Assembly (NCBI GenBank): GCA_964016885.1
Contig: OZ024741.1
Span: 197,470,001 to 197,534,000, forward strand
Source of the DNA: Eledone cirrhosa
Taxonomy: Eukaryota
Direction: 5' to 3'
DNA length: 64,000 bases
Under the pieces are notes generated by a model. The model did no database searches. It saw only the letters and a list, made by a program, of their open reading frames with translations, and was not told the DNA's origin. The position numbers and the translations under genes were made by a program. Shown piece after piece: positions 56,151-57,402 of the stretch. Position 1 is the first letter of the stretch, and every line of letters begins with the position of its first letter.

Positions 56151-57402
56151 ATTATGAAGAGAGAAGAAACATTTAGATATAATTAGTAATAAAATGTATC
56201 ATACCTAAACTGTTCCTAAATTCCTCGACTACGTAGTTTCGTGGCATAAACAAAAACAATATATCAAAGATATAGAGTCCTTGCGAGGTCTGCCGACTTA
56301 TCAAGAGGATACCTCATTTTACTAGTCTCAAGAACGCGTCTACACGACGTGAGAAAGAATCCCAAAAGGCGGAGGGGGAGACAGTCACGCGATATAACGG
56401 TCGAGAAACAGAGCTAAGCCTCTTATAACCACGAAGAAAATACCACGGAGGCGGAGGGGGTATTCATATCGAGGCCGTAGAAGAGGTAGTGAAGAAGGCG
56501 AGAAGTATGAGTAATGGAAGCTTTCCAGTTGTCCCCACACTTCAAAGATTGCTCGACCAGAGGGAGTTATTAATATATTTAGAAACACACAGATACATGC
56601 GGACACACACATATATACATGAATGCATCCGCACCCAACTGTGAGTTAAGGGTGCCAACTTCACCGATGTTGCTCAATGAATGACTGGGACAGACTAATT
56701 CAGTTTGAACCAGACTGAACCAGTATCAGAGTTAAAAATACATTATGAAGAGAGAAGAAACATTTAGATATAATTAGTAATAAAATGTATCATACCTAAA
56801 CTGTTCCTAAATTCCTCGACTACGTAGTTTCGTGGCATAAACAAAAACAATATATCAAAGATATAGAGTCCTTGCGAGGTCTGCCGACTTATCAAGAGGA
56901 TACCTCATTTTACTAGTCTCAAGAACGCGTCTACACGACGTGAGAAAGAATCCCAAAAGGCAGAGGCTTAGCTCTGTTTCTCGACCGTTATATCGCGTGA
57001 CTGTCTCCCCCTCCGCCTTTTGGGATTCTTTCTCACGTCGTGTAGACGCGTTCTTGAGACTAGTAAAATGAGGTATCCTCTTGATAAGTCGGCAGACCTC
57101 GCAAGGACTCTATATCTTTGATATATTGTTTTTGTTTATGCCACGAAACTACGTAGTCGAGGAATTTAGGAAGAGTTTAGGTATGATACATTTTATTACT
57201 AATTATATCTAAATGTTTCTTCTCTCTTCATAATGTATTTTTAACTCTGATACTGGTTCAGTCTGGTTCAAACTGAATTAGTCTGTCCCAGTCATTCATT
57301 GAGCAACATCGGTGAAGTTGGCACCCTTAACTCACAGTTGGGTGCGGATGCATTCATGTATATATGTGTGTGTCCGCATGTATCTGTGTGTTTCTAAATA
57401 TA
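56151..57402. mobile_element. HHR-bearing element: 591-bp unit in partial tandem plus an inverted arm, in (TA)n
   Basis: 56151-56370 repeats at 56742-56961; 56962-57402 is inverted; HHRs at 56222-56309 (-), 56813-56900 (-) and 57076-57163 (+). Confidence 0.9.

Follow-up and report, generated by a model that had tools for sequence, protein, structure and literature searches.

A 591-bp hammerhead repeat recently inserted into a TA microsatellite: a probable non-LTR retrozyme copied by PLE enzymes

Metazoan non-LTR retrozymes are described as non-coding, head-to-tail units with a type I hammerhead, a GC content below 50% and strong self-pairing, which coexist with PLEs (PMC7229834; 10.64898/2026.07.22.740005). 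Animal retrozymes have been argued to be non-autonomous PLE derivatives (10.64898/2026.07.22.740005); the enzyme that moves them, and circles as its template, are proposals so far (PMC7229834, PMC7761336). The repeat unit analyzed in this study, found in a 64,000-nt stretch of DNA (hereafter the window), shares these features, including a circle predicted to be self-paired and coexistence with PLEs. Its size of 591 nt is above the range of 150-450 bp given by Cervera and de la Pena (2020, PMC7229834) and within that of 51-972 bp given by Li, Clavereau and Pollet (2026, 10.64898/2026.07.22.740005). The unit differs from metazoan retrozymes in its U3-A8 core and its long loop II. Its hammerhead is, in addition, predicted to be blocked by alternative pairing once the RNA is circular; for most metazoan retrozymes the prediction is that the circle leaves the hammerhead free. 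Mussel retrozymes are described as having no canonical loop 1-loop 2 tertiary contacts (PMC7229834), and in a preprint on Xenopus retrozyme dimers eight of nine were uncut in vitro and one was cleaved (10.64898/2026.07.22.740005). The unit carries every sequence-level mark of non-LTR retrozymes that was examined, and on these sequence features our verdict is that the 591-bp repeat represents a putative new family of non-LTR retrozymes, that is, of non-autonomous PLEs.

PLEs themselves are the other close system. Their insertions are described as consisting of partial tandems accompanied by a 5'-truncated copy in inverted orientation, and as favouring (TA)n (PMC8557442). The insertion analyzed here likewise consists of a partial tandem and an inverted 5'-truncated copy in a (TA)n target, a layout with a microsatellite target that it shares with endonuclease-bearing PLEs and with Chlamys MRC1 (PMC8557442). 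With the Chlamys non-autonomous elements (MRC1) it also shares multicopy head-to-tail units and the lack of a readable target duplication (PMC8557442), the flanks on both sides of our insertion being (TA)n. Unlike the endonuclease-bearing PLEs (PMC8557442), the unit contains no RT or GIY-YIG, and no RT plus GIY-YIG reading frame of the kind that defines an autonomous PLE was found in its 591 bp. Its two end sites lie about 165-169 nt apart, unlike the start sites that bound the PLE 'tail', which are separated by 30-40 nt; this tail is described as optional (PMC8557442, PMC11167929). Compared with the PLE hammerheads, namely those of Schistosoma Cercyon with U3-A8 and a Drosophila virilis variant (PMC4209133), the unit shares the U3-A8 core, a 5-bp helix I and the G10.1-C11.1 pair, as well as a bulge inside helix II, a small palindromic helix III and close pairs on opposite strands. 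The PLE minimal hammerhead has one additional nucleotide separating position 9 from 10.1 and a minimal helix III; neither was found in the unit, in which A9 directly adjoins G10.1. The Poseidon PLE of Anolis shares with the unit two preferred internal starts downstream of the hammerhead, an AT-rich target and extension of both strands (PMC11167929). The Poseidon starts, however, are adjacent, lie in an AC-rich stem-loop and are not homologous to the target (PMC11167929), whereas the ends of the unit match TA over 5-7 nt. The unit is not a viroid-like hammerhead circular RNA, since it has a hammerhead in one polarity and, in the window and in sequencing run X2, is DNA integrated in (TA)n.

At the locus, tandem and inverted copies of the unit are flanked on both sides by (TA)n tracts (Table 1). 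Positions 56742-56961 match 56151-56370 letter for letter, and the 229-nt blast match between the unit copies has mismatches at its edges only (56150/56741 and 56371/56962). The locus does not contain two full units. Arm B corresponds, in reverse complement, to unit positions 56573-56741 followed by 56151-56423; it has one internal substitution, at 57173, and holds 43-48 nt that are absent from the adjoining copy. End site 1 is directly 3' of a long hairpin, and end site 2 is located within a predicted single-stranded AU run. The initial annotation of this DNA had described about 1.4 tandem copies with two minus-strand hammerheads 591 nt apart, and these were recovered with the same spacing. 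The inverted arm with a third hammerhead and the near-identity of the copies, from which a recent insertion had been deduced, were likewise confirmed. The right end had been placed at 57402 and is corrected here to 57403, both ends being blurred by the match to the TA target. What had been taken as key evidence, a unit junction at 56151/56742, is simply the position where this copy ends, and the inversion, regarded at that time as unusual, is a standard feature of PLEs (PMC8557442).

Table 1. Positions of the features of the 591-bp insertion in the window.
Feature	Positions	Strand	Remarks
Arm A, 1.38 head-to-tail copies of the unit (period 591)	56151-56966	minus (ribozyme sense)	3' end toward left (TA)n
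Predicted cut-to-cut monomer, 591 nt	56227-56817	minus	GC 41.6%
Type I hammerhead 1, U3-A8 core	56222-56309	minus	predicted cut 56227/56226
Type I hammerhead 2	56813-56900	minus	U3 = 56895, A8 = 56890; predicted cut 56818/56817
Type I hammerhead 3	57076-57163	plus	descriptor match
Arm B, inverted 5'-truncated 442-nt copy	56962-57403	plus	3' end toward right (TA)n
Inversion junction, 4-5 nt common to both arms (GAGG)	56962-56966	no strand	
Recurrent 3' end site 1	56738-56742	minus	75-80 nt past cut; equals left end of insertion, 56147-56151
Recurrent 3' end site 2	56573-56579	minus	about 240-245 nt past cut; equals right end of insertion, 57403
Left (TA)n target tract	55777-56152		one interruption
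Right (TA)20 target tract	57398-57437		

The three hammerheads are identical letter for letter. Each contains stem I (TCCTC/GAGGA), the core UUGAUAA, the G10.1-C11.1 pair, GAAA, the GUC triplet and a palindromic helix III with the sequence ACUACGUAGU. Helix II consists of 6 bp with one bulged C, and loop II of 44 nt. The type I hammerhead descriptor, which detected the motif in only one polarity per unit, matched none of 5000 shuffled units, and the descriptor scan agrees with the stem I, palindromic stem III, GUC and UUGAUAA previously noted for all three motifs. In the Rfam search of positions 50000-64000, no hammerhead family was present among the 80 matches at E<=1, probably because loop II is 44 nt long and the core is a variant one. 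No other ribozyme class was listed for this region; the miRNA matches were rejected as microsatellite and hairpin noise.

In the core UUGAUAA (U3 U4 G5 A6 U7 A8 A9), the C3-G8 pair is replaced by a U3-A8 pair. This covariation has been described in Schistosoma PLE hammerheads, with about 1,300 hits (PMC4209133), and U3-A8 hammerheads are known in nature, such covariants reportedly being active in vitro (PMC3088659). Whether UUGAUAA is family-wide, a question raised by the initial annotation, was answered in the affirmative by the public run X2, where the family has a very high depth (1,662 contigs on the unit): at 56895 and 56890, alternative letters all stayed below 5% of the depth. In the rest of 56813-56900 there was no substitution at or above 5%, the only variant being an AT insertion in loop II. 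Positions 56431-56534, in comparison with the 88-nt hammerhead, bear eight substitutions at or above 5%. As judged from these contigs, the U3-A8 core is the norm of the family and not a lesion, because no alternative at or above 5% is seen at the core positions. The suggestion that the core had been inactive before insertion is not borne out, since U3-A8 is a published active covariation (PMC4209133, PMC3088659) and is family-wide in X2. By analogy with the published covariants, the U3-A8 hammerhead is predicted to be still able to cut. In the isolated motif, the active fold lies 1.1 kcal/mol above the predicted minimum. In the circular monomer, it is calculated to cost 8.0 kcal/mol, both strands of stem I being paired elsewhere. 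Such a disfavoured active fold would slow cleavage and protect a circle. As a monomer, helix III is predicted to form 3 bp closed by a tetraloop; two copies pairing with each other would give a 10-bp duplex of -12.9 kcal/mol. Cleavage as dimers through a palindromic helix III has been described for PLE hammerheads (PMC4209133).

The unit is non-coding, as had been proposed. Its reading frames are at most 86 aa long, neither of the two that were searched against Pfam gave a hit, and no credible protein match was obtained. A 71-aa frame at 56429-56641 was considered as a PLE endonuclease tail and rejected; in a search space of 1.84 billion proteins it had three matches, all of them unrelated repeat proteins, and it did not match the PLE profile. 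That profile, built from 120 PLE proteins, detected nothing in the unit and five PLE pieces elsewhere in the window. On the ribozyme strand, the cut-to-cut circle is predicted to fold with -174.3 kcal/mol (z -5.8; none of 40 shuffles as good) and with 63% of its nucleotides paired, and the predicted signal is located mainly in the first 240 nt past the cut. The calculated circular fold of the opposite strand has z -1.7, and one of 40 shuffles was as good. Ten X2 substitutions were compared with the fold: four keep a pair, four are unpaired and two break a pair, in a count that omits five rows at 56592-56604, where unrelated microsatellite contigs map. One diverged contig of run X10 (depth 2) has seven substitutions, three of them unpaired, one keeping a pair and three breaking one, and two one-letter deletions on opposite sides of one stem. 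These variants weakly support the predicted fold.

Copies of the family were further analyzed in public sequencing runs, four of 24 runs being compared with one unit without flanks; six rows with a share under 0.5 were unused. The head-to-tail joint was present in all three contig runs compared (X1, X2 and X10). In X1, the whole unit is one closed contig of 621 nt (591+30) that differs from the window at two positions and has no flank. The closed contig, the non-coding head-to-tail units, the type I hammerhead and the strand-specific fold are all in line with the large retrozyme originally suggested. Among the best 17 of 106 loose ends in X2, those ending in (TA)n lie before 56738 (seven contigs) and before 56573 (five contigs), which coincide with both (TA)n junctions of the window insertion; a further fold-back end among these 17 is at 56798. 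The share of X2 contigs continuing into unlike sequence was 0. The summed contig depth in X2, which is not a copy number, rises just 5' of both end sites; this step is the pattern expected from truncation off two starts, and was left out of the evidence for the starts. From the X2 contigs it follows that at least one genome contains the 591-bp family in abundance, and that the family is targeted to (TA)n, has two preferred ends and has been inverted more than once.

How the insertion arose can be considered on the basis of described PLE activities. With a purified PLE, AT-rich DNA was cleaved and extended on both strands, copying began at internal positions of the RNA, and uncleaved RNA was the main template (PMC11167929), and a twin-priming model assumes priming from two sides of a break (PMC2246262). 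In the locus, the 3' ends of both arms in ribozyme sense face outward, and each outer end matches the TA target over 5-7 nt. Since both arms point outward, the outer ends would be the RNA 3' positions where copying began. Two of the predicted cleavage sites fall within arm A and one within arm B, and all three are intact. We consider it probable that the locus is a recent insertion of a 591-nt hammerhead unit into a TA microsatellite, and that this unit is a non-LTR retrozyme for which the RT and endonuclease of a PLE do the copying in trans. In this process, tandem loci would be transcribed in ribozyme sense. The hammerheads would cut the transcripts slowly, the probable cutting form being a dimer held together by the 10-nt palindromic helix III, and the 591-nt monomers thus released may be ligated into circles. 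The PLE enzyme would then cleave (TA)n on both strands, and the free DNA ends would each prime reverse transcription at one of the two preferred AU-rich RNA sites by the short match of 5-7 nt. The template would be a circle or an uncleaved multimer, and the joining of the two cDNAs head to head at GAGG would produce the inversion. By analogy with the PLE systems described above, the 591-bp unit would work like a PLE passenger.

The nature of the template deserves comment. Since both cDNAs traverse intact cleavage sites, a cleaved linear monomer would not serve as the template unless jumps occurred. A single linear template would need, by arithmetic, about 1,455 nt, i.e. at least ~2.5 units. 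The earlier proposal of a multimeric or circular template is thus supported by the read-through of intact cleavage sites; a circle in particular is not implied, since an uncleaved multimer fits equally (PMC11167929), and we regard the odds between circle and multimer as about even. Position 56696 bears on this point. It is T in both arms and C in X1, X2 and X10, and the common T points to one source for both arms. If the host is the X2 organism, the shared T favours one circular molecule read repeatedly. Should the host instead be a relative with T as a common variant, the position says nothing about the template. The family is in itself ordinary, since animal retrozymes and U3-A8 hammerheads are already published. 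Its value lies in being a clean test case for the proposed PLE route: this young family combines a TA target, two fixed starts, an inversion and read-through of intact sites, which together make up the complete PLE footprint.

Other explanations of the locus should be weighed against this reading. The unit might be the tandem hammerhead-bearing terminal region of a longer autonomous PLE, with the locus as a short 5'-truncated copy. PLE ends do carry hammerheads, including U3-A8 forms, and inverted pairs of them 100-700 bp apart (PMC4209133); most PLE copies are truncated (PMC8557442), and the preference for uncleaved RNA in vitro (PMC11167929) would suit such an element. The X2 contigs are also short, and their loose ends were seen as the best 17 of 106, which leaves room for a longer parent. 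Nevertheless, the 591-nt period shows no coding trace, the X1 contig is closed without a branch, and the X2 loose ends among those 17 are (TA)n, short fold-backs or indels. We therefore regard a longer PLE as unlikely. It might also be supposed that the ribozyme is dead or irrelevant, the unit being spread either passively, as an RNA passenger, or by amplification at the DNA level. Hammerhead mutants had no effect on PLE insertion in vitro (PMC11167929), most Xenopus units assayed were uncut (10.64898/2026.07.22.740005), and the active fold is predicted to be disfavoured in the circle. A dead ribozyme, however, is hard to reconcile with two core changes that restore a pair and with the sparing of the 88-nt motif from substitutions in X2 compared with 56431-56534, and the recurring ends and inversions point to reverse transcription and not to unequal crossover. 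Loss of the ribozyme's role thus appears very unlikely. The inversion might also be an assembly or library fold-back artefact, near-perfect inverted arms beside long (TA)n being hard to assemble (PMC8557442). The two arms, however, stop at unlike sites, and each of these sites recurs with (TA)n in the independent X2 data; arm B has its own substitution and nucleotides absent from the adjacent copy; and a second inverted hammerhead insertion, with diverged arms, is present at 42573-42911. An artefact is extremely improbable in our estimation.

The same unit was found under other organism labels, and a further explanation arises from this finding. At least half of the sampled words of the unit are present in 14 runs with 11 organism labels from 10 studies, and the source of the window may be among these; no RNA run is among the holders listed. 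The unit is nearly unchanged in X1, X10 and X22, and the X1 contig, two letters from the window, is flankless. These facts could mean that the unit is a ribozyme circle moving between unrelated animals, by horizontal transfer or as an extrachromosomal agent, and that the locus is one landing site. Against this, the depth is low and flat in both X1 (7.8, compared with 29-61 for four longer unrelated X1 contigs) and X10 (10-13, without flank), and the hammerhead is in a single polarity. In 1.9 Gb of raw Hi-C reads with the label of run X8 but from another sample, five reads matched, all of them on the microsatellite patch, where a single copy would give about eight reads in a 1-Gb genome and three in a 3-Gb genome. 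A high-copy family is thus excluded in that sample, and a single copy is compatible with it. The data are explained equally well by a very abundant repeat having been carried over, by a minor organism in the sample or by close relatives at low coverage, and these are likelier sources of the cross-label hits than spread across species. A moving circle seems to us a poor candidate, with hardly any probability. Pattern scans gave 0 and 0 matches in metagenome contigs and 0 in prokaryotic genomes; two viral-contig loci were rejected as chance, only a 19-nt pattern being in common.

It is a long shot, in our opinion, that a 591-nt non-coding hammerhead circle crosses many animal species nearly unchanged, persists in some of them with no chromosomal flank, and is itself the template for insertions into TA microsatellites, primed from two sides at two fixed positions. 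If this were true, such a flankless circle would represent a retrozyme becoming an infectious RNA, and would be genomic proof of a circular template. The near-identity under many labels would matter if it reflected real spread and not carry-over. Among the titles listed in the literature searches, none deals with cross-species spread of an animal retrozyme, and none with the 591-bp family; the supplements of PMC8557442, PMC4209133 and the 2026 preprint could contain the family or its motif.

The probable retrozyme insertion was also considered in the context of the window. No DNA match of the unit was found elsewhere in the window, nor a PLE with a related end. PLE fragments are located at about 6640-7320, 11960-13500 (minus), 31400-33050 and 50880-51640. 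They consist of broken RT and GIY-YIG regions, 38-47% identical to proteins of about 700 aa, and may, from the likeness of their motifs, belong to the Hydra clade. The piece at 32924-33049 is inverted relative to its neighbour. Two other hammerhead insertions lie beside (TA)n. The one at 42573-42911 adjoins (TA)n and has 166-nt inverted arms, about 95% alike, with outward-facing C3-G8 type I hammerheads at 42621-42685 and 42799-42863 and a palindromic helix III, so that it shows the same layout in miniature. The other, at 5322-5540, measures about 220 nt, has a (TA)n tract on either side and contains one C3-G8 type I hammerhead (minus 5447-5373); it is situated 1.2 kb downstream of a PLE endonuclease fragment. 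In view of these two insertions, the architecture is routine in this genome.

Several other repeats were observed in the window, whose host, judged from its SINEs, appears to be an octopod. A reading frame at 54738-55241 (minus), 500 nt to the left of the TA tract, has an RPDG...WDAT motif and no Pfam hit; the motif is presumably similar to that of the restriction-like endonuclease encoded by site-specific non-LTR retrotransposons. At 18093-20007 and 44366-47349 lie two remnants of non-LTR retrotransposons, related to each other, in which RT and a zinc-finger/endonuclease region are recognizable. Two related, near-perfect MITE-like hairpins of about 100-140 nt are located at 57440-57580, directly to the right of the TA tract of the element, and at 61490-61600. 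A dispersed short repeat occurs in inverted pairs beside TA tracts at 9259-9318, 10577-10864, 21956-22224 and 35289-35853, and a piece of this repeat family is also found at 42347-42409. Long inverted repeats, with matches of 152 nt and 254 nt that are 97% alike, overlap a SINE-like repeat at 14244-14974. Finally, a 21-bp minisatellite is repeated 171 times at 24311-27904, and both strands there carry long open frames.
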